This document shows positions 7,370 to 50,387 of a stretch of DNA of 64,000 bases, in pieces. How positions within the stretch are numbered: position 1 is the stretch's first letter; every line of letters begins with the position of its first letter. The notes under the pieces were generated by a model, which saw only the letters and a program-made list of their open reading frames with translations, was not told the DNA's origin and made no database searches. This DNA comes from Armatimonadota bacterium (GTDB lineage: Bacteria; Armatimonadota; SYMT01). Made by a program: the position numbers and the translations under genes. The stretch spans positions 63,305 through 127,304 of the forward strand of contig JBKBRF010000001.1 in NCBI GenBank assembly GCA_046292385.1. The letters run 5' to 3'.

Positions 7370-10300
7370 CTACTGCTCCTGAATCCGCCGGGCGAACTGC
7401 TCGAGGAGGGAGTCGAGCTCATCCTCGGAGAGGTTATGGACCGGCGCCGCCTCCGCGGCCGGCTCGTGCGGCTGCGGACCCGCGTCCTGCGGCACCGCGA
7501 TCCCGAGCCAGTCCGCCGCCAGGTGGCGCGCCAGCGCCTCGACCGTCGGGTAGCTGAACAGGATTGTCGCCGGAAGGGGTGCGCCGACCATCTCGCCCAG
7601 GCGGTCCCGCATGTCGAGCGCCAGCAGCGAGTCGAGCCCCAGCTCATTCAGCGGCCGCGCGGGGTCCAGGGTCTCGCCGGACGGGAGGCGCAGCATCTGC
7701 GCCGCCACCTCGGCCACTGCTTCGAACAGGAGCTCGAGGCGGCGGTCCGCCGGCGTGGCTTCGAGCCGGACACGGAAACCGGCCGGAGGCGCCGGCGCGG
7801 AGCTTCGAGTAGGGAGCTCGTCCGGCTGACTCTCCGCGGTTTCCGGTCCGGAGAGCAGCTCGGAGAGCAGAGACGGAAGGCCTCCGCCTGCGTGGGCCTG
7901 CGCCAGGCGGGGGAGGTCGAGGGGCAGTACGGCCGCGCGGGTGCGGTCCCGCCGCAGCAGCAGCTCCAGCGCCCGGACTCCGCGCTCGGGCGAGATCGTC
8001 CCCATCCCCTGCTCCCGAAGGGCCGACTCCAGGGCCGCGGCGGCGCCGACCTGGCTCCACGCTCCCCAGTCGATACACACGGCGCGGAGGCCCTGCGACC
8101 GGCGATATTCCGCCAGGGAGTCCAGGAAGGCGCTCGCGGCGGCGTGGTTCGCTTGGCCGCGCGATCCGAGGAGCCCGGCCGCGGAGGAGAAGAGCACGAA
8201 CAGGTCCACGTCTCCCATCAGCTCGTGCAGGTGCCACGCGCCCGCCGCCTTGGGTCCCCATACCGCGTCGAACCGCTCCACCGATTGCTGGGGGAGCAGG
8301 GCATCCGCCAGTACCCCGGCGGCGTGGAACACTCCGCGCAGCGGCGGCATCTCGGAGCGGATCTTCCGGAGCAGCGCCTCGACCTGCGCGCGGTCGGAGA
8401 CGTCCGCCTGGAGGCACTCCACCCGCGCCCCGGCCGCGGTCAGCTCCGCCATCACGGAACGGGCGGCTTCTCCCGGAAGGCTTCGCCCCGCCAGCGCCAG
8501 GTGGCGCGCCCCGAGACGGACCAGGTGCCGGGCGACCTCCAGCCCCAGGCCTCCCATCCCGCCGGTGATCAGGTAGGTCGACTCCGGGCAGACTCCGGTC
8601 CGCTGGCTGACCACCACCTTGCCGACATGGTCCGGCTCCTGCATCCGCCGGAACGGCGCCGGGACCTCCGGAAGCGGGTAGCAGCGCACCGGCGGCGGAC
8701 TCAGCTCACCGCTCTCCAGCGCGGCCGCGACCTCCCGGAGCAGGCTGCCGAACAGCTCCGGGCTCGCCTCATCCAGGCGGACCTCGAAGCGCTCCACGTC
8801 CGGCCGGACCGCCCGCACCTGCTCCGCCGTCCACGCTCCGACCCGCCCCAGCTCGATGAAGCGTCCGCCCCGCTTCAGCGCGTCCAGCGCCTCCGGGACG
8901 AGCTCGCCGGGAAGGGAGCTCAGGACCACGTCCACTCCCTCGCCTCCCGTCGCGTCGAGGATGCGGCGAGCGAACCCCGGGGTGCGGGAGTGGAACACGT
9001 GCGGGACTTCCAGCGAGCGGAGATAGGCCCGCTTCTCCGGACTGCCCGCCAGTGCGAATACCTCGGCGCCCCGGCTGCGCGCGATCTGGATCGCCGCCAG
9101 CCCCACGCCCCCGGACGCCGCGGAGATCAACACGCGCTCTCCCGGGGCGAGCCGAGCGAGGTGAGCCAGGGAGTACCAGGCGGTGACGGAGGCGATCGGA
9201 ATCGACGCCGCCTGCTCGGCACTGAGGAACGCCGGCTTCGGGACCGCCAGCGCGGCGGGGAGCGTGACGCAGCTGGCGAAGCTGCCTCCGGCGGCCGCCA
9301 TCACGGGGTCGCCGGGCCGGAGCTGCGTGACCCCGGGGCCGACCCGTTCCACGGTGCCGGCGCACTCTCCGCCCAACGGGGCTTCGCCGGGCACGAGGTC
9401 GAGGGCGTTCAGCACGTCTTTGAAGTTCAGGCCCGTCGCCGCCACGCGAATCTCGATCTCTCCTGGACCCGGCGCGCGGCGCTCTTCGGGTTGAAAGGTC
9501 AGCCCGCGCAGGGAGCCGCCGGGCGACTTCCGGAGCCGGAACGGCTCGGCGGGAACCTCTACGGCATCCGCTCGCGGCAGCGCCTGCAGGCGTGCCGCAT
9601 GACGGCACCCGTCGCGCCAGGCCGTGCGTGCTTCGGACCCGGTGTCCCGCAGCTCCGCCTGGAGCGCACGGGCATTCTGCTCGGGGGTCGCGCACGGGTC
9701 CAGGTCCACGATCCGGCAGCGCAGCTCCGGGAGCTCGAGCTGCAGGACCGGTGCGATTCCCCAGAGGGCCGACTGCGAGAGTGCGGGCACGTCGGTGGCG
9801 CGGACGCGCTGCGCGCCGCAGGTGACGATCAGCAGACGCGGAGCATTCTGCCGGCTCGCCGCGTGCCGGATGGCGTGCAGCAGGCTCTCGACCGCCCGCG
9901 CGCCGCCGCCTAACTGCTCCCCGGCGCCATCTGCTCCCCGACGCTCATCCAGCGCCGCGAGGTGCAGCACGCCGTCCCACTCCCCGTCCGGCAGCGGGTC
10001 GTCGGGGTCCACCTCCGACAGCGCCTCGACCGAATCCGGCAGCCGGGCCAGCAGCGCGTCCGTCCTACTCTCCGGGCGTGCGCTCACAACCCAGCGTCCG
10101 CTCCCAGCCGCTTCGGGGGCCCGGGCCAGGAACAGCATCTGCTGCGCCTCGCCGCGGTCCGGCGCGACGCCGGTCACGCTCCGGAAGCCGGCCTCCTCCA
10201 GCAGTGAGACCCAGCGCTCGCACGGCACGAGGGGGTGGGACCGGAGATCGGTATCCTCGAAGCTCCACCAGCCCTTCGTGAGCCCGAAGACCAGGTCAAT

Positions 10301-13300
10301 CCAGCGGACCTTGCCGGCTCCTTCGATCACCGCCAGCATCCCCCCGGGGGCGAGCAGCGTGCGGAGGCGCGCCAGCGTGCGGCGCAGGTCCCCCGTGGCG
10401 TGGAGGACGTTGGTCGCCAGGATCAGGTGGTACCCGCCGGTGGAGTAGCCCTGCGCCTGCGGGTCGAGGTTCAGGTCGAGCACCCCGGTGCGGAGCTCCG
10501 GGTAGGCGGAGAACGCCTCTTCCGCCGCGTGGAGGAAGTGCGGCGAGAGGTCGGTAAAGCAGTATTCCTCCAGCCGCCCGCTCAGCAGCGGCAGCGCGAC
10601 GGCGGCGGTCGCTCCGGTCCCGGCGCCCACCTCCAGCACCCGCAGGCGGGGCGCATTCGGGAGATCGCCGACCATCGCTTCCAGCGCACCGCCGAGTAAG
10701 GCGTGGAGGGCGCGAGCGAACGGGGTCTCGCGGTAGATCACCTCCGCGCCCGGCTCGCCGGAGAAGAGGAGACTCACCGGGTCGACCTCTCCGATCAGGA
10801 CGCGCGAGAGAGACTCCCCGCAGCGGGCGAACAGGGCGATCTCCGCGGCGCGGACGGGGTACGCCGCCATCAGCTCCCGGACCCGGGAGGGAAGGTCCCC
10901 GGGTGCCGGGGTGCGCACGACCCGCCAGTCCGGCGCGCTCCCCGCGACGACTCCGGTCTCGGAGAGCATCTCGCACAGGCGCTCCAGCAGCCGGTCGTAA
11001 GGCCGCGCCGCCACCGGCAGCCGCAGCGGCTCGCCGGGCTCGAACCGGACCCCCAGCTCGTACAGGGCAGCCGCGGCATAGTGCGGCGCCAGCTCGTCCA
11101 GCGCCGCGGTGAGCTCGCGGTAGTCCTGCAGCTCGGGATCGCCGGAGAGGCGGTCGAGCTCGCCCGCGAGTGCCGCTCCCACGTGGGCGGGATCCTCGAA
11201 GACCGGAGCGCCGGCATTAGGAGCCGGGCGCCACACCAGCTCGTAGAGATCCCGCTCGATCGACGCGTCCCGGTGGAGGGACTCGGGTCGAGCCCGCTTG
11301 CACTGGAGGTTCGTGACCGTAACGACCGCGCGGCCGGCGGCGTCCAGCAGCACCAGGTCTCCCGCCGCGGTCTCACCATCCGGCAGGGCTCGCGCCGCGG
11401 CATGCGCCCGGCACGGAGGTCCCGCTTCCGGGTTGAAGTTGAGCCTCTCCAGGGCGAACGGCATGAAGCTCTCGGCCGGCTCGCCCGCACCGAGCGCGGC
11501 ACCGAGGGTCTGGAAACAGGCGTCGAGCAGCACGGGATGGAGCCGGTACGCCCCGGCGCCGGCACGGGCCTCCTCCGGCAGCTCCAGCTCCGCCAGCGCC
11601 TCGCCCGGGCCGCAGCGCAGGCTCCGGATCGCCCGAAAGACGGGGCCGTACCCGATGCCGGCGCCGTCCAGGTGCGCGTAATACTCTTCCGCGGGGACGG
11701 AAACCGCGCAGCGCTCCTCCGCGGACGGCAGATCTACCGTCGCCGTCGCCGTCGCCGCGCTCTCGAGACGGCCGGAGGCGTGCTCGACCCACGCCTCTCC
11801 CTGCTCGCTGAAGATGCGGAAGGCCCCGTCCGGCTCCACGACCGTCTGCACCGCACGCTCGTCACCGTCCGGCAGGAGCAGTGCTTCGCGGAAGGTCACG
11901 TCCCGGACGGCGGCACTCCCGATCGCCAGCGCCATCTCCAGGTAGCCGGCCGCCGGGAACACGACGGCTCCATGCACGCGGTGCTGTGAGAGGTACGACG
12001 GAGCGTCCCCTCCCACCACCGCCTCGAACACCCGGGGCCCGGCGGCGGTGCGGACGCGCGTGCCGAGCAGCGGGTGGCCGCTCGCGGGAGCCGGGGCGGC
12101 TTTCCGGGGCGGGTCGATCCAGTATCGCTCTCGCTCGAACGGGTAGGTCGGCAGAGTGACCTTGCGACGCGCGTGCTCCCGGTCGTACGCCCCCCAATCC
12201 AGCGTCTCGCCCTGCACCCACCGGCGGCCCCAGCCGTGCAGCAGCGCTTCCCAGGTGGTCTGGCCCCGCCGGACTGCCTCGCTCCACTCCTCCGGGGGCA
12301 GATCGATCGCGGTGGCGGCCGTCTGCGGCTCCGCCGCCGCTTCCCCACGGCCCACCGCCAGCAGGCGCTCGCGGGCCTGCCCCGCATCCGCCGCCACCAC
12401 GAACGCCCGGCAGGCGAGCGGAGCGCGGCCGGTGTGGACCGTGTAGGCCGCGTCCGCGAGCGATACGGCCTCCTGGAAGTGGTCCGCGCAGCGCCGCGCC
12501 AGCTGGCGGAGCGCCGTTTCGCTGCGGGCGGAGAAGCAGAAGAGATGGAGCGGTCGCTCCGGGGCGCCGGACTGCGACTCCGGGGAAGCGGCAGGCGCCT
12601 GCTCCAGCACGACGTGTGCGTTGGTGCCGCCGATGCCGAAGGAGCTGACGCCGGCGCGGCGGAGCCCGGTCCACGGCCGGGCACTCGTGTTGACGCGGAA
12701 CGGTCCCGCCTCGAAGTCGATCTCCGGGTTCGGCGTCTCGAAGTGGAGGCTGGGCGGCAGCACTCCCTGCTCCATCGCCAGGACCGTCTTGATGAGACCC
12801 GCGACGCCCGCCGCCGCTTCCAGGTGGCCGACGCTGCTCTTGACGCTTCCCAGCGCCACCGGGCTCCGCACGCCGCGGAAGACCTCGTTCAGCGCGGCGA
12901 CCTCGATCGGGTCTCCCAGCGGCGTGCCGGTTCCGTGCGCTTCCACGTAGGAGATGCTCTCCGGAGAGATGTCCGCTACCGCGATCGCCTCCGCAATGAC
13001 GGCGGCCTGGCCGTCGAGGCTGGGAGCGGTGAAGCCGACCTTCCGCGCGCCGTCGTTGTTGATTGCCGAGCCGAGGATCACGGCGCGCACCCGATCCCGG
13101 TCTCGAGCGGCATCTTCGAGGCGCCGCAGCACCACGACTCCGGCGCCGCTGCCGAAAACGGTTCCGGAGGCGCGGGCGTCGAAGCTGCGGCACCTGCCGT
13201 CCCGCGAGAGGATGCTGCCGTCCTGCCAGAGGTAGCCGACCCGCGAAGGCACCCGGAGCGTGACGCCTCCCGCGAGGGCCACGTCGCACTCGCCGTTCAG

Positions 13301-13867: not shown

Positions 13868-13871
13868 TCGG

Positions 13872-17983
<4,112 letters not shown>

Positions 17984-17987
<4 letters not shown>

Positions 17988-20900
17988 ACGGTGAAGACCT
18001 CCCAGTCCGCCGCGCCCTCCTCGAGCTGGGCCAGCACCAGCTCCGCGATGCTCCCCGTCGTGCCGCCGCTCAGGAACGGCGCCAGGGGCAGCTCGATGCC
18101 GAGGCAGGTATTGATCCGGTTCCGCAGCTCTACCCCCATCAGCGAATCGAGACCCAGTTGAATCAGCGGAGCGGCCGGGTCGAGCGCGCGGCCGGCCCGC
18201 AGCCCGAGCACCCGGCGCGCCGCGCCGGCCACATACTCCACCGCGAGTGTGGCCCGTTCTTCCTTATCGGCCGCCCGGAGCCGGTCCGCAAGGTCTTCCT
18301 CGGAGTCGAGCCGGCTCCCGGCCGTCTCTTCGTGGAGCCGTTCGAACAGGCGCGGGGCGGTGCCCGCGGAATAGCGCTCCAGGAAGCGCTTCCAATCGAG
18401 ATCGACGACGGCAAGCTGCGGCTCGGACCGCGCCAGGGCGGCGTCCAACGCCGCCAGGCAGCTCTCCGGCGCCATCGCGCGGAGGCCGAGCGCCTCCAGG
18501 CGCTGCCGCCCGGACTCGTCCAGCCGCTCCGCCATGCCGCTTCCGGCCCACCGCCCCCAATTGAGGCTCAGCGCGGGTAGGCCGAGGCTGCGGCGGTGCC
18601 GGGCGAGCCCGTCCAGATACCCGTTGGCGGCGGCATAACTCGTCTGGCCCGTCGCCCCGATGAACGACGCGATCGACGAGAACAGGATGAAGAAGTCGAG
18701 GGCCATTCCGCGGCTGTGCTGGTGGAGCAGCCAGGCTCCGCGCGCTTTCGCTGCGAGCGCCTCTTCGAACCGCTCTGGGGTCAGATCGCCGATCAGGCCA
18801 TCCGCCGTGACTCCCGCCGCGTGGATAATTCCCCGGAGCGGCGGCAGGCCGTCCTCTCCGGACAGGAGACGGCGAACGTCGTCCTCTCGCCGCACGTCCG
18901 CCTGCGCTGCTCGCACGTCGGCGCCGCGCTCGCGCAGCTCATGGAGAACCGCTTCGGCCGCCGGTGACGGCGCGCTCCTCCCGGCCAGCAGCAGATGACG
19001 GGCACCGCGGGCGACGGCCCACCGGGCGGTCTCCAGCCCGAGGCCGCCGAGGCCGCCGGTGATCAGGACGGTGCCCTCGAACCGGATCTCGACGCGCGGT
19101 TCGGCGGGGCAGCGGACCAGGCGGGGCACGAGCCGCTCTTCCCCCCGGAGTGCCACCTCCGCCTCGTCGCCGGTCTCGATCTCGCGGCAGAGGGAGCGCA
19201 GAGGGTCTCCCGCGGGGTCGAGGTCGATCCGCCGGCAGCGCAGCGCCGGGCACTCGGCGGCGAGGGCGCTGGCAAAGCCGCGGAGCAGGGCGGCGGTCGG
19301 GGAAGGGGTCTCCCGAGCGGCGCCGCGCGTAAGGAGGGTAAGCCGGGGCGGCGCGGGCAGCTCCGCCAGCGCCTGTGCCAGGCTCAGGAGCCCGCTCCAG
19401 GCGCGACTCCCGGCCTCGTCGAGCGACCACTCGCACGCCCGGGTGAAGTAGAGGACCTCGCCGTACCCGGAAGCTGCCTGAAGCAGCGCGCGAAGCTGGG
19501 CGGGGTCGGTGAGATCCACCTCATACCGTCCTGGCGCCGCCGTCCGAAGCTCGGCTCCCGGCAGCGCCAGGACGCACTCGCCCTCCAACTCCGCCGCCAG
19601 TCGCTCGCCGAGCTCCAGGGCGTCGGTGACGAACAGCCGCTTCGCTGCGGCGTCCGGGACCACTTCCAGCGGCCGTGCTTCCCAGTCTAGGCGGTAGAGG
19701 AGGTCGTCCACCGCTGGAGAGGAGGCGACGGCGCCGCGGGCGACCGCCTTGAACGCGAGTCCCGATACCACTGCGACGCAGCTTCCCGTAGAATCGTGCA
19801 GGCTGAGGTCGGCCCGGTGCGTCGCGTCGTCGCTCGCCGGGCGCAGGACCGCGCGGCAGGTGAGCGGTCCCTGCGGCGAGCTGATGAAGTCGAGACGGTC
19901 GATCCCGACCGGCAGGAACGTCGCGCCCGCCGTCTCCGGGCCGAGCGCTCCGCCGGCCGTCTGGAGACACGCGTCGAGCAGCGCCGGGTGGAACGACCAC
20001 CCCTCGCCCGCCAAGTGGCCCGGCAGGCTCACTTCCGCCTCGGCGACCTGTTCTCCGCGCCGCATCCGCCGGATACCCTGGAATGCCGGCCCGATGCCGA
20101 TCCCGCGGCGCTCCAGCTCGCGGACCCACTCCGCTCCGGAGGTCTCGGCCGTTAGCAGACCGCCGTCCACCGCCGCCACCGTCGCCGCTTCCGGAGCCAC
20201 GCGGCAGGCGAGGGCGGACGCATGCAGTGTCCAGACCTCCGCCTGCTGGCTGAAGACGCGGCAGTGACCCTCCGGCGACACCACCACCTGCACGGCGCGC
20301 GGCTCGGCGGAGTCGAGGAGCAGGGGCGCGTCGAACCGCAGCTCTGCCAGCCGCACCGGCGCCGCTTCGCCGCCGTCCCGGAGCGCCTCCAGCATCAGCG
20401 CGATATGGACCGCCCCCGCCACCACCACGGCGCCGAACACGCGATGGTCCGCCAGGTACGGGTGGGTCTCCAGCCCGAGGCGTGCTTCGTACAGTCGCTC
20501 GGCGAGCGGAGACGGGATCCGCCGGCCCCATGGGGGCAAGCCCGACGGTCGCGCCGGCCTGGTAGGGATCGGCTCGAGCCAGTAGCGCTCGCGCTGGAAC
20601 GGGTAGGTGGGGAGGGAGACCTTCCGGCGGGCGTGACCATGGTCGTAGGCGTCCCAATCGACCGTTTCGCCGCCGAGCCAGCGGCGGCCGGTCTCCTCGA
20701 GCGCGGCGTGGCAGCGGGCGCCGTCCCCGGGCAGGTCTCCGCCGGAGAGCACCTCGGCTGTCGGCTGACCTGCCGCGATCCGCAAGAGCAGTTGTCCGGC
20801 CTCCGCCGCATCTCGCGCAATGAGTGCCGCGCGGCAGCGGAAGGCGCTCCGGCCGGTGTGAGCGGAGTAGGCCGCGTCCGGCAGGGAGACTTCACGCTCG

Positions 20901-22393
20901 GCGAAGTGCTCCGCGTAGCGCCGCGCCAGCTGGCGGAGCGCCGCTTCCGTGGGAGCGGAGAAGCAGAGGAGATGCAGCGGCCGCTCCGCCGCGGGCGCGG
21001 GCCGATCCGGGGCCACGGGCGCCTCTTCGACGACGACGTGGACGTTGGTCCCGCTGAACCCGAACGAGCTGACGCCCGCTAAACGGCGACCTTCCGCCGA
21101 CTCCCAGTCAATCAAAGAGGTCGGGATCCGGAGCGGAAGCTCGCCGGTCTCGATGTAGGGGTTGAGCTTCTGGAAATGGAGATGCGGCGGGATCTGCCGG
21201 TGCTGCAGGGAGAGGAGCACCTTGATCAGCCCGGTGATGCCCGCGGCCGGGCCGGTGTGGCCGAGGTTCGTCTTCACGGAGCCGAGCACCAGCGGGTGCC
21301 GGCGTCCCGGTCCGAAGACGGCGGCCAGGGCCCGCACCTCGATCGGATCGCCCAGCGCCGTGCCGGTACCGTGCGCTTCCACGTAGCCCACCTGCCCCGG
21401 CTCCGCGCCCGCATCCGCCAGCGCCTGGCGGACCACCGCTTCCTGGGCGGCGGCGCTGGGGGCGGTCAGGCCGCCGCTGCGACCGTCCTGGTTCGCGGCG
21501 GAGCCCCGGATCACGCCGAGGATGCGGTCCCCAGCGGCACGCGCGTCGGAGAGGCGCTTCAGGACCACGACTCCGCAGCCCTCGCCCTGCACGAACCCGT
21601 CGGCCGACGCGTCGAACGCCTTGCAGCGCCCCTCCGGCGAGAGCATCCGCGCGCGGGAGAGCCCCATCGAGAGCGCGGGGGTCAGCACGGTATAGACGCC
21701 GGCCGCGAGCGCCGCTCCGCACTCGCCGGCCCGGAGGCTCTGGACCGCCCGGTGGACCGCCATCAGCGAGGACGAGCAGGCGGTGTCGACCACGCAGCTC
21801 GGCCCGCGCAGGTCGAGGACGTACGAAAGCCGGCCGGCGCAGACGCTCGCGGCGCCGCCGGAGACGGTGTAGGCGTCGATGCGATCCGGCGCCTCCAGGG
21901 CGAGCTGGTAGTACTCGTTCGAGTTGGCCGCGACGAAGACCCCGGTGCGCGTGCCGGCCAGTCGATCCGGCACCAGGCAGGCATTCTCGAGCGCTTCCCA
22001 CGTGGTTTCGAGCACCAGGCGCTGCTGCGGATCCATCCCGGCCGCCTCGCGCGGAGCGATGCCGAAGAGCTCCGCGTCGAACCGGTCGACCTCCTGCAGG
22101 AAGGCGCCGCGCCGGCTGCAGATCTTGCCGGGACGATCCGGGTCGGGATCATAGTACGCGTCGATATCCCAGCGGTCGGAGGGGACTACGGTCACCGCGT
22201 CGCGGCCCTCCCGGAGCAGCCCCCAGAACCGGTCCGGACCCTCGGCGCCCCCCGGGAAGCGGCACCCGATCCCGATCACCGCGATCGGCTCACGGCGGTC
22301 TCGCTCCCGCTGCTCCAGGCGCTCCAGCCGCTCCCGCATCTGGCTCAGCGCTGCCGCCGCGCGCTTCAGCGATTCCGCTTCGGAAGGGCTCAC
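17984..22393 (-). CDS. Type I PKS module 6: KS-[AT deleted]-DH-KR-ACP with C-terminal SLiM docking peptide
   Basis: 1469 aa. GTG start overlaps the upstream stop (GTGA). [20 protein letters not shown]; no AT core; [44 protein letters not shown]; ends DWEVFTV. Confidence 0.94.
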
Positions 22394-28300: not shown

Positions 28301-28920
28301 AGTGAGGATGAGCAGGCGGTATCCACGACCATGGCGGGGCCGCGGAGCCCGAGGAAGTAGGCGAGTCTCCCGGCGGCGATGCTGGTGTGGCTCCCGGAGG
28401 CGGACCACGCGTCGATCCGCTCGGCGTCCCCCGCGCCCCGGCCGAGCAGGGTGTAGCCGCCATTGTAGAGGCCCAGGAAGACGCCCGCATCCGTGCCCTG
28501 GAGGGACGTGGGCGGGATCCCGGCGTGCTCCAGCGCCTCCCACGACACCTCCAGCGCCAGCCGGTGGTGCGGATCCATGGAGACCGCCTCGCGAGGAGCG
28601 ATGCCGAAGAAGGCCGGCTCGAACAGGTCGATCCGGGGCAGAAAGCCGCCGGTCCGGAAGCTCATCTTGCCGGGGGCGGATGGATCGGGGTCGTACCACT
28701 CGCCGATCGCCCAGCGCTCCGCCGGGAGCTCGATGCCCGCGAACGCTCCGGCCCGCAGGAAGCGCCGGAAGTCGTCCGGACCCTCGACGCCGCCCGGAAG
28801 GCGGCAGCCGATCCCGATGACCGCCACCGGCTCGGACGCGGCGCGCTCCGCGACCTCGAGTCGCTTCTCCAGCTCATCGATGGCGAGGAGGGCTCGTTTT
28901 AGCGGTGACAGACTCTCCAA
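22390..28920 (-). CDS. Type I PKS module 5: KS-AT-O-methyltransferase-C-methyltransferase-KR-ACP
   Basis: The track ORF starts at 29052. TTG at 28920 is the likelier start: it has AGGGAG upstream and the docking helix [18 protein letters not shown] follows. AT GHSLG/TPGAYHS; oMT YYDS...VPGFCWL...[10 protein letters not shown]; c[32 protein letters not shown]. Confidence 0.93.
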
Positions 28921-28957
28921 CCCACACTCCCTTGCCGTACTACCCCGGTCTCCAGGC

Positions 28958-31900: not shown

Positions 31901-34900
31901 GCTCGGGCCCTTCAGGTTCAGGGCGTAGGCCAGGCGGCCGGAGGCGAAGCTGTGGAAGTTGCCGGCGATCTCGTCCAGGCTCGGCGTGCCGCCCGAGGCG
32001 CGCTGGAGCCAGGCGTAGTCGCTGCTCTGGCTGCCGATCCCGAGGAACACCCCGGTCTCCGACGGCGCTCCGTCACTCGTGAGCTGCCCCGCGCTCTCCA
32101 GCGCCTCCCACGCGACCTCCAGAAGCAGCCGCTGCTGCGGGTCGACCGCCGCGGCTTCAGAATCGGAGATCCCGAAGAAGGCGGCGTCGAACGCGTCGAC
32201 GGACCAGAGGTAGCCGCCTTTCCCGAGGGCGGCTGCCGCGTCCCCGAACCGCTCCGGCGGGGCGTCCGTGACGGCGTCCACGCCCCGGTAGAGCAGCTCC
32301 CGGAACGCCATGGGCGTGTCGGCGCCGGCCGGAAAGCGGCACGCCATGCCGATGATCGCTACCGGCTCCGCGCGGTCCACCGGACGCGTGCGGTCCGGCT
32401 CCTCCACCGTCAGTGCCTGCGCTCGCAGCCCGAGCTCTCCGGCCAGGTGCTCCGACAGCGCCTGAACCGTCGGGAGCTGATAGGCGAGGGTCGCCGGGAG
32501 CTTCAACCCGAGCTCTCGCGAGAGGCGTCCGGAGAGATCAACCGCCGCCGTGGAGTCGAGTCCCAGGTCCCGCAGCGGCGTCGTGCTGCCGACCTTGCCG
32601 GGCGAATCGAGCTCCAGTACCGCGGCGACCTGACTCCGCACCCGGTCGGCCAGCACCGCCTGCGCCTCGGATGGGGACAGCCGGTGGAGCCGGTCGCAGA
32701 GCCGTTCGCCCGGCTCCGGGGTGGGAGCGGGTGCCAGGACCCGACCGGATGCCTCGAAGCTCAGGACGATCCGTCCCACGTTCCGCCCGCGGGCCATGAT
32801 CCGGAAGGCTTCCTCGGCCTGGGCGACCGGCAAGAGCTGAGAGGGGAGGGGGGCGAGGGAGCCGTCCGCCACTTCGCGGAGCACCGCCTCCAGGATCCGG
32901 CGGAGCTGCTCCGGCTCCGTATCCCGCACGTGGAAGAGGTCCAGAGGGAGGTAGCTTGCGTCCGACCGGAGCGCGGCGACCTCGGCAGAGTCCGAGACAG
33001 CCTGCTTCCCCAACTGCACGTAGCGCCCGCCCGGCAGCAGAGAGGGGAGGTCGGCGCGCAGGCCCTCTGCGGAGCGGGCGCCCAGGATGACGCCGAAGCC
33101 GCCCGGTCGAGCCGCACCGGCGTCCAGCCCGCTCGGGGACGAGGGGAAGACCTGTTCGAGGCCGAGAGAGCGGAGGTGCGCGTGCTTGTCCGGGTGGGCG
33201 GTCGCCACCACTTCGGCCCCGATGCTCCGGGCGATCTGCACCGCGGCGAGACCTACGCCGCCCGCGGCGTTGTGAATCAGGACGCGCTCCCCGGGCTGCA
33301 GGCGGGCCAGCACCCGCAGGCCGATCCAGGCGGTCAGGAAGGGAATCGGCAGCGCGGCGGCCTCCCCGGACCCGAGTGCATCCGGGATCGGAAGGACCAG
33401 CCCCGCGTCGGCCGTCACATGCGTGGTGAGCGCGCCCTCCGCGACCGCGACCACCCGGTCGCCCGGGCGCAGGCCGGCGACCCCCGGGCCGATCCGGGTG
33501 ACGGTGCCGGCGCAGTCGGAGCCGTAGCCGGCGGCTTCCTCCGCCAGCACCCCGAGGGCGTTCAGCGCGTCCCGAAAGGTGAGTGCCGCGGCCGCAACCT
33601 CGATCTCGACTTCCCCGGGGCCGGGCTCGCGCGGCTCGAAAGGAGCGAGCCGGATCGTGTCCAGCCGCCCACGCTCCTCAACTGCGACCCGGCGCGGCTC
33701 CGCCGGAGGGACAGCGCCGGCGAGGCGGGTGAAGCCGGCGCCGCGGAGCTCTATCAGCACTTCGCCTTCCGGCCCCAGCAGGGCCAGGTCGGCGGTGAGT
33801 CTCCCGCTCTCAAGGGAACGGAGGCGCGCGTATCCCCACTTCGGGAGCGCCGTGCAGGCCCCGAGCCGCAGCTCCGCGCAGTGGGTCAGCATGTAACTGC
33901 CGGTATCGCCCGGCGGCAGCAGCGCGTAGCCAAGCTGGGCGCACGCCTCCACCAGGCCGGGATGGCACCCGAGCGCGAACTCCGCGCCGCCGGGGTCCCG
34001 GAGCACCGCCAGCGCCTCTCCCTCGCCGCGCTGCAGGCTCTCCACGCACCGGGCGGCGGGTCCGAGCTGGAACCCGGCCTGCTCCAGCCGCCAATACAGC
34101 TCCGCTTCCGTCTGGTGCGCGGCACAGCGGGCGCGGACCCGCTCCAGGTCGATCCGCTCGCTCGCGCAGCTGGGCTTGAGCACCCGGCCGGTGACGTGGG
34201 CCTGCCAGTCCGCGCTCTCCGCGGCGCGGCTCTCGATCCGGAAGTCGTTTCCGAGGGTCAGCCGCACCTCGCGGGGGGGCTCCACCACCAGCGCCCGGCT
34301 GAAGTGCACGTCGGCCAGCTCGCAGCCGGCATCGCCGCGCAGCTCCCGCATCGACTGCGCCACCAGCTCCAGGTGGACCCCCACGTGCGCCAGCCCGCCC
34401 GAGTCTCGCAGCAGCGGCAGCTCCTGCGGAGAGACGCGCCCCTGGAAGACAGCGCCGCGGTCGCCAGACGCGCCGGTCCGGGTGAGGAGCGTCCCGGGGC
34501 TCCGGCTCCCTTCTCCGCTCCGGGCCGGCAGCCAGAAGTCACGGCGCTGGAACGGATAGGTGGGGAGCGGGGCCTTCCGCCACGAGCCGGCTTCGCCGAA
34601 CACCGCCGGGTCGACTTCCCCGCCCCGCACGTACGCCTCGCCCGCCTCCCGCAGCCGCGCGTCCCCGGCTCCCAGGCACTGACCCGGCTCTCCTCCCGCG
34701 GCCCAGTCCCGCAGCCGCTCCCGCAGCTCCGCCGCCGTCGCTCCCACTACCGCCAGCCGCGCCTCGAAGTGGGTGCGCCCGCAGTAGGCGGTGCCGCACA
34801 CGTCCGCCAGCCGTACCGCGCTCCCGTTCCGCTCCAACTCCGCGAGATACCGCTCGTACCGGCTCGCCAGCGCCTGCAGCCCCGCCGCGTCTTTCGCCGA

Positions 34901-36340
34901 GAGGCAGAGCAGGTGCCCGCCCTCCGGCGAAGCGGCGACGAGGACCGGCGGCTCCGGCGCGGCTTCGAGCAGGACGTGGGCGTTGGTGCCGCTGAAGCCG
35001 AAGGAGCTGACCCCCGCGATCCAGCGTCCGTCCCGCCCCTCCCACGCCTGCGGCTCCCGCGGGATCTCCAGCGGGACACCGCGGCGGTCGATATGCGGGT
35101 TCCACTCCCCGAAGTGGAGGTGAGGCGGCAGGCAGCGGTGCTGGAGGGCGAGCACCGTCTTGATCAGCCCCGCCACTCCCGCGGCGGCTTCCAGGTGGCC
35201 GAGGTTCGTCTTCACGGAGCCGACCCACAGCGGGGTCTCGCGTCCGGCGAAGACCTCCGCCAGCGCGTGCAGCTCGATCGGGTCTCCCAGGGCGGTGCCG
35301 GTGCCGTGCGATTCCAGGTAGGAGACCTGCTCCGGGGTGAGGCCAGCGCCGCGGAGGGCCTGGCGCAGGAGGGCGACCTGGGCGCGACCGTTGGGGGCGG
35401 TGAGGCCGCCGCTGCGGCCGTCGTGGTTGACGGCGGAGCCGCGGATCAGGGCGAGGACGCGGTCGCCGTCGCGCCCGGCGTCGGAGAGCCGCTTCAGCAC
35501 CACCACCCCGCAGCCTTCGCCGCGGCCGTACCCATCCGCGGAGGCGTCGAAGGTCTTGCAGCGGCCGTCCGGTGAGAGCATCCGCGCCCGCGAGAAGTTG
35601 ATCGACAGCTCGGGGCTTAGGACCAGGTTGACGCCACCGGCGAGGGCGAGCTCACACTCTCCCTGGCGGAGGCTCTGAAGGGCGAGGTGGGTGGCGACGA
35701 GGGAGGAGGAGCAGGCGGTGTCGACCACCAGGCTCGGGCCCTGCAGCCCGAGCAGGTATGACAGCCGCCCCGCCACGATGCTGGGGCTGGTGCCGGTGCT
35801 GTAGTAGGAGTCGACCTGCTCCGGCGCGCCCGAGCGGAGGTAGAGCCGCGCGTAGTCCGAGACCGCGTAGCCGACGAAGATCCCCGTCCGCGATCCGTAG
35901 AGGCGGTCGACCGGCACCCCGGCGTCTTCCAGCGCTTCCCACGCGACTTCCAGCAGCAGGCGCTGCTGCGGGTCCATCCGCGCGGCCTCTCGCGGGGAGA
36001 TCCCGAAGAACTCCGCGTCGAAGCCGCGGACGTCGCCGAGGAAGCCGCCCTCCCGAGTGCAGATCCGCCCCGGCGCGTCGAGATCCGGGTCGAAGAGCGC
36101 GTCGGCGTCCCAGCGGTCCGGCGGCACGCGCCCGACGCAGTCCCGGCCCGTCTCCAGCGCCTTCCAGTAGGACGCCGCATCGTCGATCCCGCCCGGAAAG
36201 CGGCAGCCGAGCCCGACGATCGCGATCGGTTCGGTGGCGGCGCGCTCGCGGGCCTCCAGCTGCGACCGGAGCTGCTGGATCTCCCGGTAGGCGCGCCGGA
36301 GCACCTCCGTCTGGTCGACCGGCTTGCTCACGCGGTCCAT
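28958..36340 (-). CDS. Bimodular type I PKS, modules 3-4: KS-[AT deleted]-degenerate DH-ER-ACP-KS-[AT deleted]-KR-ACP
   Basis: 2460 aa. Two KS (DTACSSS; DAACASS) and no GHSxG. The DH-like segment lacks HxxxGxxxx[13 protein letters not shown]; ACPs GLDST and GLDSL; a single KR (GGLGGLG, IYAAAN). Confidence 0.93.
35066..35525. repeat. KS C-terminal tract near-identical to 1-460 (copy B), next to a C-skewed linker tract at about 34600-35100
   Basis: Same alignment as copy A. On the + strand, 34681-34740 has 33 C vs 16 G and 35341-35400 has 32 G vs 18 C. Confidence 0.88.
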
Positions 36341-36370
36341 CGCGCAGCCCTTCCCGAAACCGCTCGCCGA

Positions 36371-39300: not shown

Positions 39301-42300
39301 GGTGGCCGCGCGGACCGTCCCAACCGAGCGCACTTCCAGGGTCGATTCGCCCTACCGCTTCGCCCGCTCCGCGCCAGGTCTCCACGACCCGGCGGAAGCG
39401 TGGGCCGAAGTGGAAGCCGCGGTCGTCTAGCGCGCCGTAAAGATCCGATACCAGCTCCCGGCAGCGGCTGCGTGCCTGATCCAACTGAACCGGTACGGGG
39501 CCGAGAGCGCGTCCCGGCTCCATCCGGCCGGTGGCGTGGCGGCGCCACTCCTCCCCGTCCCGCGCGTAGAGCTGCCAGCTCCCATCCTGTGCCAAGCAGA
39601 GCTGCGCCTCCCGCGCAGCGTCCAGCGGGAGGGGGAGGGCCTCGTGGAGGTCGACCTCCGCCAGGATCGCTCCGGACCGGGTGCTGCGCGCGGCGGCCTG
39701 CCAGGCCAGCTCCAGGAAAACCGTCGCCGGCAGGTAGGTGGTGTCGTGGATCCGGTGGTCCTGCAGGAACACCGTGCGGCGCGCGTCGAGGGAGACCTCG
39801 AAGAGCGTTTCCCCCGTCGCGGCGGAGCGCCGCCCCGGATCGGTGAGCAGGTCGTCTCCCTTCGAGCCGGCGGGCGCCGGGGCCGGAGCGGAGGCCGGAG
39901 CCAGCGAGTCGAACCAGAACCGCTCCCGCTGGAAGGGGTAGGTGGGGAAAGTGACGCGCCGCGCGGAACGGTCGCGGTGAAGCGCTTCCCAGTCCACCTC
40001 CACGCCGAGCTCGTAGAGCGTGCCCAGGCTGCGGAGCAGCGTCTCGCGGTCGTCGGCCCCGCGCCGCAGCGAGGGAAGCCAGAGTCCCCCGTCGACGCAC
40101 TGCCCGCCGAGGGCGGTGAGCACCGGCTGCGGACCGATCTCCACGAAGGCGTCGATCCCGAGCCCCGCCAGCGCGCGGATCCCCTCCGCGAACCGGACGC
40201 ACTCCCGGGCATGCTGCCGCCAGTAGGCCCCATCGAAGAGATCCTGCGCGGCCGCCGTGAGGTTCGAGACTACCGGGATCCGCGGCGGGTGAGGCGCGAT
40301 CCGGTCGGCGGCCGCCTGAAGCGGATCCAGGATCGGCTCCATCAGGGGCGAGTGGAACGCGTGGGAGACGGCGAGAGGGCGACTCTCGATTCCCTCTTCC
40401 CGGAGCAGCGCCGCAGCCTGCGCCAGCGCCCGCTCCTCACCCGCGAGCACCAGGTGACCGGGGGCGTTCTCCGCCGCTACCACCACCTTCAGGCCGGCAC
40501 GCCCCAGCAGCGACCGTACCTGGTCGCTCTCACCGAAGACCGTGGCCATGCCGCCGCCGGCCGGGAGCGACTGCATCAGCCGTCCGCGGGCCGCCACCAG
40601 CGAGAAGGCATCTTCGAGGGAGAGCACTCCGGCCACACAGGCCGCCGCGAACTCGCCCACGCTGTGCCCGATCACCGCTGCCGGCCGCACGCCCCACGCC
40701 TGCCACAGCTCCGCGAGGGCGTACTCCACCGCGAAGAGCGCCGGCTGGGTGTATCCGGTCTGCTCGAGCCGGCCTGCCCCTTCGAAGAGGAGCGGCAGAA
40801 GCGGCACGTCGAGGTGCTCGCGCGCGAGCTCGGCGCAGCGGTCCAGCGCTGCCCGAAACCGGGGCTCCGTCTCGTAGAGGCCACGCGCCATGCCGGGATA
40901 CTGCGACCCCTGGCCGGTGAAAAGGAACGCCACCCTGGGAGGCGCCGCGCCGACGGCGGCCGGGACCGCCTGGGAGAGTGCACGCCGAGCCTCGGCAGCG
41001 GTCCGCGCAACCACCGCCGTCCGGTGTGGGAAGTGTGCTCGCCCGACACCGGCGGTAAAGCAGGTGTCCGAGAAGGCGGCGGCGTCGGCCTCGAGGTGGC
41101 GGGCCGCGCGAGCGATCAGCTCCCGCAGGGCCGGCGCGTTCGCGGCGGAGAGGGGGAGCAACTGCGGCGCTGCGGCGTCGTTCTCTGCGCTCACGGAGGC
41201 CGGGGGCGCCTCTTCGACGATGAGGTGGACGTTAGTCCCGCTGGCGCCGAACGAGCTGACCCCGGCCAGGCGGCGGTGTGGCCCCGGCTCCCAGGGAGTC
41301 GTCTCCACCGGGATCGTGAACGACAAGCCTTCCGGCGTGAGGTGCGGGTTGAGGCTCTTGAGGTGCAGGTGCGGCGGGATCCGGCGGTGGCCCAGCGCCG
41401 CGACGACCTTGAGGAGCCCGGCGATCCCTGCGGCGGCCTCGAGATGACCGAGGTTGGTCTTGACCGACCCGAGCGCGAGCGGCTCCGTCCGGCCCGGACC
41501 GTAAGCGGCGGCGAGCGAGTGGACCTCGATCGGATCGCCCAGGGCCGTGCCGGTCCCATGCGCCTCTACGTAGGTCACCTCTTCGGGGTCGACACCGGCG
41601 TGCGCGAGCGCCTCGCGGATGACCGCTTCCTGCGAAGCGCCGTTCGGGACCGTGAACCCGCTGCTGTGCCCGTCGTGCTTCACGGCGGAGCCGCGCACTA
41701 CGGCCAGGATCCGGTCCCCCCGCGCCGCGGCGTCGGAGAGGCGGCGGAGGACCACCATCCCGCAGCCTTCCCCGCGGACGTAGCCGTCGGCAGCCGCGTC
41801 GAACACCTTGCAGCGACCGTCCGGCGCCAGCATCCGGGCCCGGGAGAGGACGACCGACCCCTCCGGCGCGAGGAGCACGTTCACCCCGCCCGCCAGCGCG
41901 GTATCGCATTCGCCGGAGAGGATCGACTGGCAGGCGAGGTGCAGCGCCACCAGGGAGGAGGAGCAGGCCGTATCGACCACCAGGCTCGGCCCCTGGAGCC
42001 CCAGGAAGTAGGAAAGCCGCCCGGCGATCGTGTTGTTCGCCTGGCCGGTCAGGGTGTAGAGCGACAGCGGGTCGGTGCCGGCCGCGGCCCGCATCCGGTC
42101 GCCATACTCGCTGCCGATGGAGCCGACGAAGACGCCGGTGCGGCTGCCGCGCAGCTCCTTCGGCGACTGGCCCGCGTGTTCCAGCGCCTCCCAACCGACC
42201 TCCAGGACCAGCCGGTGCTGCGGGTCCATCTGGACCGCCTCTCGCGGAGAGATGCCGAAGAACTCCGCGTCGAAGCGGTCGATCCCGTCGAGGAAACCGC

Positions 42301-45300
42301 CGTAGCGCGTGCAGATCTTCCCCGGCCGGTCCGGATCCGGATCGTACCAGGCTTCCACGTCCCAGCGGCCACCCGGCACCTCGACGATCGCGTCCCGGCC
42401 GTCAAAGAGGAGCCGCGCCAGCTCATCGAGGCTGCCGACCCCGCCCGGGAGGCGGCACCCCACCCCCACCACCGCAATCGGCTCGTGACGCGACCGGGCG
42501 GCCACCGCCGGCTCCGCCTCTTCGACCGGCGCCCCGGCGAGCCAGTCCGACAGCTCGCGGACGTTCGGGCGCGCGAAGAGCGCGGCGGCGGGAACGGGTC
42601 GCGCCAGCGTCGTCTCCAGCCGGTGCCGGAATGCCACCGCGGTCAGCGAGTCGAGGCCAATCTGGAAGAAGCCGGCGTGCGCGTCGATCGTCCCCGGGCA
42701 GTCGATGCCGAGCACCGCGGCCAGCTCTCGCCGCACCACTTCTTCGGTCTCGCTTTGCCCCGCAGGCGGCGGGGTGGGGTGGGCAGCTGGCGCCGGCCGA
42801 AGAAGAGTGGGCGCGGATGGCCTGGCGGCACGCACCCGCGGCGCACGCGCAAGCAGGAGACTCTGCTTCAGTCCGTCGGGAATCACTTCCACCGGCCCGA
42901 ACCCCGCTTCGGACAACACGGACCGCCACGTCTCGACCGGGAGCAGCGGGTGGTCCGGCCTCAGCTCCGTGTCCGCGAACTTCCACCAGCCGTCGAGCGT
43001 GCCGACTACCAGGTCGAGCCAGGTGGAGGGGGTGGTCACCTCGATTAGCGCCAGGATGCCGCCGGGCGCGAGGAGAGGTTGGATTCGGCGGAGTGTCTCG
43101 TGCAGATCGGGAGTGGCATGCACCACGTTGGAGGCGAGCACCAGGTCGAACGGACCGTGAAGCTCGGCCGGCGGTCCGGTCAGGTCCAGCAGCTCATACC
43201 GGACGAACGGATAACCGGCGAGCGCCTCCCGGGCACGCGCCAGGAACAGCGGCGAGACGTCGGAGAAGCAGTAATCGGTCCGGTCCGCGGGCAGCGCCGG
43301 GAGCACCGCCGCCGTGGTGCCGCCGGTTCCCGCGCCCAGCTCCAGCACCCGCAGCCGGCCAGGGCGCTGGGCGATCTCTTCGACGGCCGCGCCCAGGAGC
43401 CGGTTGGCGCCGTGGAAGAAGCCGCAGTCGCGGTAGAGCTCGGCGGCGTCCTCCAGGGAGCCGCCGGGGAAGAGCACCTCCAGCGGATCTTTCTCACCGC
43501 TGAGCACCGCCGCCAGCGCTTCCCCACAGCGCCGGACCAGCGTCACGGCGGCGCCTCCGGTCGAGGAAACCTCCGGCACCGGGTGCGGTCCGGCGTCGAG
43601 GGCGGCGCCCAGCAGCCGGCGGGCCAGGCGCGCGTGGCGTGGATCGAGGGAGACGCCGTCCAGCGAGTCGCTCTTTCCGTCCCAGCCGAGCCGGGTAAGC
43701 GCCCGGTGAGCGTAGGCGGCAGCCAGGCGATCCAGCTCCGCATCCACGCCGGCGAACCGGTGGGCGCCCGCCTCGTTCTGCAGCTCGGGCAGCCGGCTGC
43801 GGGCCCGCGCGGCGACGGCCGGCAGCTCTACCTCGCGCGCCGGGGTGGTCCTCTCCGAAAGCGTCTCGTCGTGGTCGGGCCAGCAGCGCTCCCGCTGGAA
43901 CGGATAGGTCGGCAGGGAGATCCGGCGCCGCGAGTACGCCCGGTCGAGCCCGTGCCAGTCGATCTTTACGCCGGCAACGTAAGTCTCGGCGAGGCTGCGG
44001 AAGAGGGTGGCGAGCTCGCCCTTCCCCCGCCGGAGTGACGGGAGCCAGGTACCGCCTTCAACGCAGCTGCGTCCGAGGGTTACGAGAACCGGGTGCGGGC
44101 CGATCTCGATGAAGAGCTCGCAGCCGGCCTCTCGCAGCGCCCGCATCCCGTCCGCGAAGCGCACCGGCTCCCGGGCGTGCCGCCGCCAGTGCGCCGCCGA
44201 GAGCCCGTTCGCACCCTCCAGCGCGGAGACGAAGCGGGCGCGGGGCGTCGCATAGTCGAACCGGCTCGCGAGCGCCTCGAGCTCTTCGAGAACCGGGTCC
44301 AGCAGGGGGGAGTGGAACGCGTGGGAGACCGCCAGCGGGCGGCTGGCGATTCCCTCCCGCTCCAGCCGGGCGGCAACCTCCGCCAGGGCGGCCCGGCTGC
44401 CGGAGAGGACGGTGCTCTCCGGCCCGTTCACCGCCGCAATCGCCGGGTCGAGGAGTCCGCCCAGCGCACGGCGGACTCGCTCCTCCGAGGCGAAGACTGC
44501 GGTCATCCCGCCTCCGTCGGGGAGCGACTGCATGAGCCGTGCCCGCCCGGCGACCAGCTCCAGCGCGTCCGGCAGGCTCATGCCTCCCGCCCGGCAGGCG
44601 GCGGCAAGCTCCCCCACGCTGTGCCCCAGCACCGCGTCCGGCTCCACTCCCCACGATTGCCACAGCTCGGCCAAGGCGTACTGGAGCGCGAAGAGCGCCG
44701 GCTGGGCGCAGCGGGTTTCCTCCAGGGGGGCGCCGTCATCGAAGAGCAGCGGGAGGAGCGGCCGGTCGAGGAGCCGGTCGAGGGTCTCCGCGCACCGGTC
44801 GAGGGCGGCACGAAAGGTTGGCTGCGTCCGATACAGCTCCCGGCCCATCCCCGGGTAGACGGAGCCCTGTCCGGTGAAAAGGAACGCCACCCGAGGAGCC
44901 CGCCCGGCCTCCGCTTTGCCCGCGACCAGCGCCGCCTCGTCCCGGCCGGCGTGGTAGGCGGACAGCACCTTCCGAACGCGCGCGGAGGACTCGCCCACCA
45001 CGGCCAGCCGATGGGGGAGGTGGGTGCGCCCGGTGTTGGCGGTGAAGCAGGCGTCCGGAAGCGGCTCCAGCGGATGCTCCGCGTACCGGCCCGCCAGCTC
45101 CCGCAGTGCTGGCTCCGTGCGCGCGGAGAGAGTCAGGAGGTGGAGCGGACGCTCCTCGGAGGTCTCATGCGATGCGTCGATGCCGGCCGGAACGTACTCC
45201 TGCAGGATGGCGTGGCTGTTGGTCCCGCCGAACCCGAACGAGCTGACGCCGGCGACGGCGGGGCGGCCGGTCTCCGGCCAGGGCGCGAGGCTCGACTGCA

Positions 45301-46744: not shown

Positions 46745-46748
46745 CCGG

Positions 46749-49838: not shown

Positions 49839-49967
49839 GCGCCTACAGACCTCGGGGGCGGAACGAGCGACGGGGCGAGGGCGTGAGGCTGCGGCGCCGC
49901 TGCTGGGGGTGGTAGCGGGGAGGTTGGGAGGAAGCTCGCGAGGCGTCGAAAGAGCCTCGCCCGGCGG

Positions 49968-50288: not shown

Positions 50289-50294
50289 AGGAGG

Positions 50295-50303
50295 AGTGTA
50301 TCA
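50295..50303 (-). promoter_or_regulatory. Candidate extended -10 promoter (TGaTACACT) for a leaderless transcript starting at ATG 50288
   Basis: The minus strand reads TGATACACT-cctcct-ATG, placing the -10-like hexamer 6 nt before the start codon. No Shine-Dalgarno on that strand. Confidence 0.45.
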
Positions 50304-50387
50304 TGCCCTCGCTTGACTGCCTATGGATGCGTTCGAACATTTCCGCCGGCTCGACAGCTGCACCTCGCCGGCTCCGGGGGTTCCGCG

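Follow-up and report, generated by a model that had tools for sequence, protein, structure and literature searches.

We analysed an orphan hybrid assembly line that combines polyketide synthase (PKS) with nonribosomal peptide synthetase (NRPS) modules, encoded in a 64,000-nucleotide stretch of an Armatimonadota genome (the window, G000:C1:63305-127304) and in the DNA to its left. Six of its 11 ketosynthase (KS) modules have no acyltransferase (AT) domain. We read it as a cis-AT line in which six ATs were deleted and which, using only malonyl extenders, would still elongate at the AT-less modules; their acyl carrier proteins (ACP) would be loaded in trans by the housekeeping transacylase FabD, perhaps together with the five remaining cis-ATs. 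We give this reading as a whole a probability of about 0.55. The preliminary description of this DNA had a largely correct reading of the line but overstated its rarity.

Matches to the AT profile PF00698 were confined to modules 1, 2, 5, 8 and 10, which leaves modules 3, 4, 6, 7, 9 and 11 without an AT. We number KS modules only; the preliminary description also counted NRPS modules, and its modules 8 and 9 are our modules 7 and 8. The full ATs that it placed in its modules 1, 2, 5 and 9 all have PF00698 matches: in the window the profile matched PKS-A (two stretches), PKS-C and PKS-G, and was absent from PKS-B, PKS-D and PKS-F. Past the left edge lie two more AT-less modules (the second one of PKS-G and that of PKS-I) and one more with an AT (PKS-H). 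The earlier estimate that half of the modules are AT-less is thereby enlarged to six of 11, and four subunits (B, D, F and I) have no AT at all. Pfam searches of the window proteins confirmed that no stand-alone AT is encoded there.

The AT-less architecture is real and well defined. In a second scan at E ≤ 0.1, no post-KS segment of an AT-less module matched PF00698 (0/6), all six matched the KAsynt_C_assoc, CurL-like_PKS_C and RhiE-like KS-MAT linker families, and an AT-bearing control segment scored 212 bits. This module-by-module profile scan, proposed earlier as a check, thus detected no intact AT domain in these linkers. The distance between the point 60 residues past the HGTGT motif and the post-AT motif LP(T/S)YPF was 182-209 residues in AT-less modules, against 476-486 in AT-bearing ones. 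When all 11 KS-to-post-AT regions were aligned, the AT-less six retained the linker domain of about 90 residues and the post-AT stretch up to LP(T/S)YPF, and the whole AT core was gone. The four AT-less intervals delineated in the preliminary description correspond to residues 476-599 and 1749-1874 of PKS-B, 469-603 of PKS-D and 437-581 of PKS-F, each ending at LP(T/S)YPF. Short PG-containing stretches of the six linkers align with the start of the AT; they have no PF00698 signal and we regard them as alignment noise rather than leftover AT fragments.

The AT-less modules are of the cis-AT type. The profiles PF22621 (CurL-like_PKS_C) and PF16197 matched all modules. Together with the CurL scores and the tree below, this marks the KS and the KS-AT linker as homologues of their counterparts in cis-AT modules. 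We typed KSs by phmmer against chains of the Protein Data Bank (PDB). CurL (4mz0) scored 618, 435.5, 608.6 and 613 bits with KS3, KS4, KS6 and KS11, whereas DEBS/Lsd14 scored ~469, 381, 478-508 and 495 bits, and the best single-KS chain from AT-less or trans-AT systems 432, 327, 427 and 442 bits, respectively. CurL thus outscored the latter chains by 108-186 bits in four of the five AT-less KSs scored, as it did in the AT-bearing control KS10 (623 bits for CurL, 488 for DEBS/Lsd14 and 446 for the best AT-less/trans-AT chain). The chain 7zma heads each PDB list because it has two KS domains whose scores are added (359 and 384 bits with KS6). Among the AT-less KSs the scoring covered KS3, KS4, KS6, KS7 and KS11; KS9 shares 77% identity with KS3.

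KSs of the cluster are 43-77% identical to each other, and identity does not separate AT-less from AT-bearing ones. We built a FastTree phylogeny of 443 KSs (11 belong to the cluster, 201 come from 76 genome loci, and homologous proteins supply the other 231), labelling each KS by whether an AT follows it according to HMMs built on the cluster's own domains; the tree has SH-like supports and a midpoint root, and its sample is skewed towards relatives of an AT-less query. A clade of 11 leaves (support 0.965) holds KS3, KS5, KS6, KS8, KS9, KS10 and KS11 together with four outsiders. Sister pairs include KS10, with an AT, and KS11, without one (0.964), KS3 and KS9 (1.0), and KS5 and KS8 (0.856), and KS6 clusters with two outsiders, of which one has an AT and the other none (0.991). 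Around these, a clade of 314 leaves contains 217 KSs followed by an AT, 54 without one and 35 undetermined. On these scores and sister pairs, the line is of cyanobacterial/myxobacterial (CurL-like) cis-AT ancestry, with clean AT loss in the AT-less modules as the preliminary description had proposed.

The linkers suggest how the ATs may have been lost. All six deletions are in frame, and their boundaries differ between modules {3, 9}, {6, 7, 11} and {4}. The same groups appear in the identities of the linker domain plus post-AT stretch, which are 91% for modules 3 and 9, 55-60% among modules 6, 7 and 11, and 36-50% for all other pairs. In-frame deletions would have removed an AT core of about 270-300 residues from six modules, leaving both the KS-AT linker domain and the linker behind the AT in place as a scaffold. 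We infer at least three separate deletion events, one for each linker family, after which AT-less KS-linker cassettes would have spread by module duplication or recombination. Between modules 9 and 3, a DNA repeat of 1491 bp with 87.7% identity takes in the KS and the AT-less linker and runs as far as the post-AT motif, so that the AT must have been lost before this cassette was copied. A single linker family is common to modules 6, 7 and 11, which nevertheless fall in different KS groups; this suggests recombination of linkers or KSs. Parsimony alone leaves some room for gain of ATs instead. The label of a cis-to-trans intermediate is a reasonable evolutionary one whose direction is not set by these results. 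A bolder version, which we consider rather unlikely, takes the line as a live snapshot of a cis-to-trans transition without a dedicated trans-AT, in which cis-ATs serve their neighbours in trans, FabD is at most a backup and the AT-less KS-linker cassette is spreading by recombination. If this were true, loss of an AT would be a step that selection can act on and that propagates itself, as opposed to decay.

The candidates for loading the AT-less ACPs are few. A six-frame PF00698 search of the genome (7.04 Mb in 91 contigs, 98.45% complete, 2.9% contamination) gave 12 candidates and six matches, namely the five cis-ATs and one ORF of 342 codons on another contig, C13. This ORF is a FabD equivalog (TIGR00128, 341.9 bits for a cut-off of 260.9) with the motif APFH. 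Neither this search nor the inspection of the flanking open reading frames (ORFs) revealed a dedicated free-standing AT beside the cluster or elsewhere in the assembled genome. KS C-terminal profiles matched 14 times, 11 of them in the cluster and three in frames of FabF/FabB size (426-598 residues). Hence, there is no second modular PKS in the genome that could lend an AT. The preliminary description had named neighbouring ATs, FabD and a discrete AT past the left edge as possible loaders; the first two remain, whereas the third falls away.

The chemistry predicted from these domains would be simple. Four of the five cis-ATs have the motif HAFH, which, like APFH, is taken as a malonate motif in work on haliamide (PMC6274090). 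Methyltransferase (MT) domains occur in six modules, so that methyl branches need not derive from methylmalonyl. We thus propose a malonyl extender throughout, with methyl branches from in-line C-methyltransferases. Under such a regime, one general malonyl-CoA:ACP transacylase would suffice for the orphan ACPs, and FabD, the only free-standing transacylase in the genome, would be the main loader in trans, to which the five cis-ATs may contribute. This remains a prediction from domain content and motifs, as does continued elongation by the AT-less modules.

Among the alternatives, the one that fares best gives FabD no part: each of the five cis-ATs would load its own ACP and that of the next AT-less module. 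The order of the line (AT, AT, none, none, AT, none, NRPS, none, AT, none, AT, none) fits it in that all AT-less modules except 7 sit directly after an AT-bearing one, or after an AT-less one that does. Modules 8 and 9 are moreover on one polypeptide, KSs with and without an AT from this line pair as sisters in the tree, and all five ATs keep GHSxG and the conserved Arg and His. The alternation is nevertheless not statistically compelling with five against six modules. Loading would also have to cross subunit boundaries, given the four subunits that have no AT, and module 7 comes after an NRPS module. We regard exclusive AT sharing as a doubtful explanation, though one to be kept in view.

Some or all AT-less modules might instead be non-elongating, passing the chain on or being skipped, or the whole line might be decaying and without product. 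Module 3 (window 32411-35083, residues 420-1310 of PKS-B) is the case in point. It consists of KS, linker, dehydratase (DH), enoylreductase (ER) and ACP, with no ketoreductase (KR) and not even its structural half. Its DH lacks the catalytic His and has a four-residue deletion at the HxxxGxxxxP site, its DH and ER have weaker Pfam scores, and the ER keeps its NADPH motif. Module 9, a close copy of module 3, is complete. Module 3 thus resembles a duplicate in decay, or else a module that deliberately keeps the keto group. Also in favour of non-elongation, we found no ortholog of the cluster in the genomes of 60 relatives (eight had a match at E ≤ 1e-50, the best one 49% identical over the KS), nor in a set of 5.8 billion proteins, where the best match other than self reached 57% over 35% of PKS-D.

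The residues of the line as a whole argue otherwise and agree with the preliminary description. All 11 KSs retain the catalytic Cys, the His of HGTGT and the second His, whereas non-elongating KS0 domains are described as lacking the catalytic His (PMC9582728). The serine of the DS motif is present in all 12 ACPs. Some 22,800 codons are in frame with full-length domain matches throughout, the sequence variants found in metagenomes are mostly synonymous, and near-identical DNA occurs in soil or root metagenomes of four other studies (see below). We therefore consider loss of elongation or of the product unlikely, and clearly less probable than AT-less modules that still elongate.

A dedicated trans-AT encoded outside the assembly or the bin is less probable again. 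The fragmentation, completeness and contamination of the assembly leave room for it, and relatives with the look of classical trans-AT systems (L156, L157, L161 and L169) do have an AT-only ORF beside their AT-less KSs. Yet, the cluster lies inside a contig of 333.6 kb whose flanks of ~40 kb and >220 kb encode no AT, a PKS and its dedicated trans-AT are typically expressed together (PMC11907408), and nine mixed relatives also have no AT-only ORF in the 15-26.5 kb available around each.

That AT-coding DNA simply collapsed out of the contig is scarcely credible: although none of the Logan contigs listed spans the junction of module 3 (~34580-34990), which has 87.7% identity with the cassette of module 9, those of modules 4 and 6 are bridged by independent contigs, the six deletions are in frame with three types of boundary, no intra-cluster DNA repeat exceeds 93.5% identity (two NRPS adenylation regions, followed by the KS9/KS3 cassettes at 87.7%), and no exact repeat was found beside any AT position.

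The bridging contigs come from an alignment of Logan contigs of four runs to window positions 17000-36500. In the probable source run, a hot-spring metagenome, a contig of 5540 bases covers positions 17000-22065 and the module 6 junction, and one of 12,545 bases covers positions 22036-34580 and the module 4 junction, both with 0 differences. A contig of 585 bases from a soil run of another study (positions 30527-31111) also bridges the module 4 junction. For these two junctions, the AT gaps are thus not assembly artefacts. Near-identical DNA was found in 12 runs from five studies. Of the 31-mers sampled from positions 29000-36400, 24-42% were present in seven soil or root runs of three studies beyond the probable source, and 5-16% in four more soil runs, one of them from a fourth study. 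Hence, the organism, or a close relative with the cluster, is not confined to one sample. Three of these runs beyond the probable source contributed contigs to the alignment. Among the 40 variants listed out of 427 differences, 29 are synonymous and 28 are at codon position 3, which, in this small sample, fits purifying selection.

Several points weigh against the reading that we prefer. The evidence fits FabD and the cis-ATs equally well as loaders. The neighbours of fabD, a sigma factor and a SpoIIE-type phosphatase instead of a fab operon, argue neither way. A small AT gene could be missing from an assembly in 91 contigs. In AT5 the motif is GAYH, not the HAFH of the other four ATs, so that one of the extenders may be something other than malonyl; its match to the Pfam model is limited to positions 1-276 out of 319. 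The loss of the KR and of the DH His in module 3 points to some decay under way, and this module may behave differently. Few variants were sampled, and other PKS genes may be the source of some contigs. Concerning ancestry, the fifth AT-less KS scored, KS7, is fed by an NRPS module and scores best with AT-less hybrid KSs (4wky, 555 bits against 396 for CurL); it is uninformative on the cis/trans question because this hybrid class is common to both systems, the hybrid trans-AT and hybrid cis-AT subclasses forming one clade in the NaPDoS2 account (PMC9582728). Finally, the cis assignment rests on PDB scores and AT-following labels: the KS phylogeny proposed in the preliminary description did place AT-less KSs as sisters of the line's own AT-bearing KSs, but the tree has no named trans-AT clade. 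A tblastn search of KS6 against plasmids returned 978 records, none clearly labelled as a trans-AT PKS.

The nine megasynthase genes of the cluster (22,844 residues, ~68 kb, G000:C1:41982-110117) are all co-directional, and the minus strand carries every large gene of the PKS part (Table 1). The G+C content is 73% in the first 46 kb of the window and 65-70% beyond. The line opens with an ACP (GIDSL) ahead of KS1 (window 46424-46813, residues 1-130 of PKS-A); no loading AT, KSQ, FAAL or CoA ligase was seen in the line for starter loading. After the last megasynthase gene come a P450, a PapA-like condensation-family protein/acyltransferase and a phosphopantetheinyl transferase (L007:8724-11985). 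The right flank (window 48045-58131) encodes an AcrB-family RND pump with an HlyD-type fusion protein, besides an ABC1-type kinase and a DUF362/GH1-like protein. This pump adjoins the cluster and could export the product, although we found no evidence of linkage.

Table 1. Genes, AT cores and AT-less linkers of the assembly line, from the head of the cluster to its end (Cy, heterocyclisation; A, adenylation; Ox, oxidase; PCP, peptidyl carrier protein; TE, thioesterase; DH*, DH without catalytic His).
Feature	Window position	Strand	Other coordinates	Content	Evidence
Type II thioesterase, head of cluster	46749..47513	-			PF00975, 139.7 bits
PKS-A, 3480 aa	36371..46813	-		ACP0-KS1-AT1-MT-ACP1-KS2-AT2-DH-ER-KR-ACP2	Pfam; KS, AT and ACP motifs
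AT1 core	43967..44884	-	G000:C1:107271-108188	GHSVG, HAFH	PF00698 match; alignment
AT2 core	40013..40927	-	G000:C1:103317-104231	GHSVG, HAFH	PF00698 match; alignment
PKS-B, 2460 aa	28958..36340	-		KS3-linker-DH*-ER-ACP3, KS4-linker-KR-ACP4; both modules without AT	Pfam; DH, ACP and ER/KR alignments
Module 3 AT-less linker	34545..34915	-		KS-AT linker and post-AT motif	Linker alignment; Pfam re-scan
Module 4 AT-less linker	30720..31095	-			Linker alignment; Pfam re-scan; bridged by independent contigs
PKS-C, 2220 aa	22390..29052	-		KS5-AT5-MT-MT-KR-ACP5	Pfam
AT5 core	26446..27276	-	G000:C1:89750-90580	GHSLG, GAYH	PF00698 match; alignment
PKS-D, 1469 aa	17984..22393	-		KS6-linker-DH-KR-ACP6; without AT	Pfam
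Module 6 AT-less linker	20585..20990	-			Linker alignment; Pfam re-scan; bridged by independent contig
NRPS-E, 1371 aa	13872..17987	-		TubC_N docking domain-Cy-A-Ox-PCP; heterocycle-forming	Pfam; Cy motifs FPLTDIQ, DLLIAD
PKS-F, 2165 aa	7370..13867	-		KS7-linker-DH-MT-ER-KR-ACP7; without AT	Pfam; PDB scoring (KS7 of the NRPS-to-PKS hybrid class)
Module 7 AT-less linker	12125..12560	-		55-60% identical to linkers 6 and 11	Linker alignment; Pfam re-scan
PKS-G, N-terminal 2549 of 3880 aa	1..7647	-		KS8-AT8-DH-MT-KR-ACP8-KS9...	Pfam on window part
AT8 core	4777..5700	-	G000:C1:68081-69004	GHSVG, HAFH	PF00698 match; alignment
PKS-G, whole gene	past left edge		L009:309-11951	second module KS9-linker-DH-ER-KR-ACP9, without AT	Pfam
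PKS-H	past left edge, after PKS-G			KS-AT-DH-MT-KR-ACP (module 10)	Pfam
PKS/NRPS-I	past left edge, after PKS-H			KS-DH-MT-KR-ACP-Cy-A(MT)-PCP-TE (module 11, without AT)	Pfam

The two NRPS modules are closely similar. The Cy end and A-domain regions of NRPS-E (window 15074-16946) and of the terminal NRPS module (G000:C1:44363-46238) are 93.5% identical over 1887 bp, and the two modules probably activate the same amino acid, as judged from this similarity. Their A domains differ by the insert, Ox in NRPS-E and MT in PKS/NRPS-I, and both condensation domains are of the heterocyclisation type. The tandem MTs of PKS-C are two domains, of which one matches the O-methyltransferase family PF00891.

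Five of the nine KRs have a His in place of the catalytic Tyr, in the motif N-H-(A/V/C)-A-A-(N/S), and these are exactly the KRs of MT-bearing modules: those of PKS-C (window ~23000-23600), PKS-F (~8000-8600), the first module of PKS-G, PKS-H and PKS-I. We surveyed related loci (L012-L085) and proteins with regular expressions, counting only KRs with a KS upstream in the same frame. An MT motif was present in the modules of 22 of the 25 His-type KRs, against four of the 154 Tyr-type ones. The His-type KR looks like a conserved subclass tied to C-methylation, as far as these motifs can tell. A limited literature search on His-for-Tyr KRs in C-methyltransferase modules returned nothing on point, which does not show that the trait is undescribed.

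Mixed architectures also occur among the relatives of the cluster. In the 76 closest genome loci, an AT follows 170 of 201 KSs and is absent after 13, with 18 not judged. Many homologs of PKS-D mix AT-less and AT-bearing KSs or hold only AT fragments (e.g., P0002, P0009, P0037 and P0053). We gathered 79 metagenome loci with the nearest AT-less relative as query and found 110 KSs with an AT, 33 without, 13 with an AT fragment and 24 undetermined, as well as six AT-only ORFs. The nine mixed loci without an AT-only ORF mentioned above are L099, L118, L124, L133, L135, L137, L149, L151 and L175. Among them, L124 encodes five AT-less KSs and one AT-bearing KS, all placed by the tree within the clade that the KSs of the present cluster form. 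The 13 KSs with an AT fragment are in L114, L116, L117, L119, L120, L127, L130, L143, L146, L158, L160, L168 and L176, and several proteins (P0002, P0037, P0026 and P0011, some labelled Burkholderia) show the same trait. It is possible that such partial deletions are stages toward the clean loss seen here. Five relatives examined for AT and KS content had one to three KS-bearing large frames, FabD, small KS frames of FabF/FabB size, and nothing else of this kind.

These counts bear on the claim that interleaving of AT-bearing and AT-less modules is uncommon. Mixed lines are not rare, as shown by the nine of 79 loci, by haliamide, and by the 122+351 mixed cis/trans PKSs (473 of 8799) reported in a published catalogue (PMC10394414). 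The present line stands out by its ratio, by the cis ancestry of its AT-less KSs and by having no dedicated trans-AT. Given the lines already catalogued and the characterised haliamide system, it adds a case, not a concept. It is nevertheless a natural test bed for how far a cis-AT line can shed ATs and still be fed, and for who feeds the AT-less modules, FabD or the neighbouring cis-ATs. The latter question bears on the engineering of smaller PKSs and on the origin of trans-AT systems. To our knowledge, the Armatimonadota are a phylum with little known natural-product chemistry.

With five AT-bearing modules, six AT-less ones and two Cy-A NRPS modules in one co-linear line, the architecture is that of the mixed class. 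It departs from the textbook cis-AT PKS, which has an AT in every extension module, in that six of the 11 have no AT core at E ≤ 0.1. It also departs from trans-AT PKSs in that a dedicated free-standing AT gene is absent and that four of the five AT-less KSs scored side with CurL; as to the integrated AT, six of the 11 modules have none and five have a full one. Canonical trans-AT systems (bacillaene PksJ/PksL, or the structures of 'AT-less' KSs by Lohman et al.) share with it a KS followed by a retained linker and no AT (PMC11907408), but the KSs of the present line score 110-190 bits lower with them than with CurL and there is no free-standing AT gene with the cluster. CurL itself (curacin-like PKSs) is the best PDB match of KS3, KS4, KS6, KS11 and KS10 (435-623 bits) and has the same linker families, PF22621 and PF16197; it retains its AT, which six modules here do not. 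For algae, AT displacement is one proposed way in which trans-AT PKSs arise (PMC4661987).

The line resembles other mixed or AT-less systems in part. In the enacyloxin and kirromycin systems, dedicated trans-ATs are encoded and the parts without an AT belong to the trans-AT type. The lines for enacyloxin IIa in Burkholderia ambifaria and kirromycin in Streptomyces collinus likewise combine cis-AT and AT-less modules (PMC11221535, PMC5818483); here, in contrast, we found no dedicated trans-AT, and the sisters of the AT-less KSs are cis-AT KSs. The FK228 (romidepsin, dep) line of Chromobacterium violaceum is similar in having AT-less modules and no AT gene in the cluster, and is reported to obtain AT function from the fatty acid synthase gene fabD1 (PMC12994790). 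The present line differs in also having five working-looking cis-ATs. In the dep line, all PKS modules are reportedly AT-less.

The haliamide (hla) line of Haliangium ochraceum differs in its proportions, with two of four PKS modules AT-less against six of 11 here, and in its methyl branches, which here would come from C-methyltransferases and not from methylmalonyl-specific ATs; a product is known for haliamide only. It is alike in being a cis-AT-type hybrid from which other domains (DH, KR) are also missing (PMC6274090). Its modules 2 and 5 are reported to take up malonate in feeding experiments despite having no AT, and the loader proposed there is a distant stand-alone acyltransferase with the motif APFH, the same motif as in the FabD of this genome (PMC6274090).

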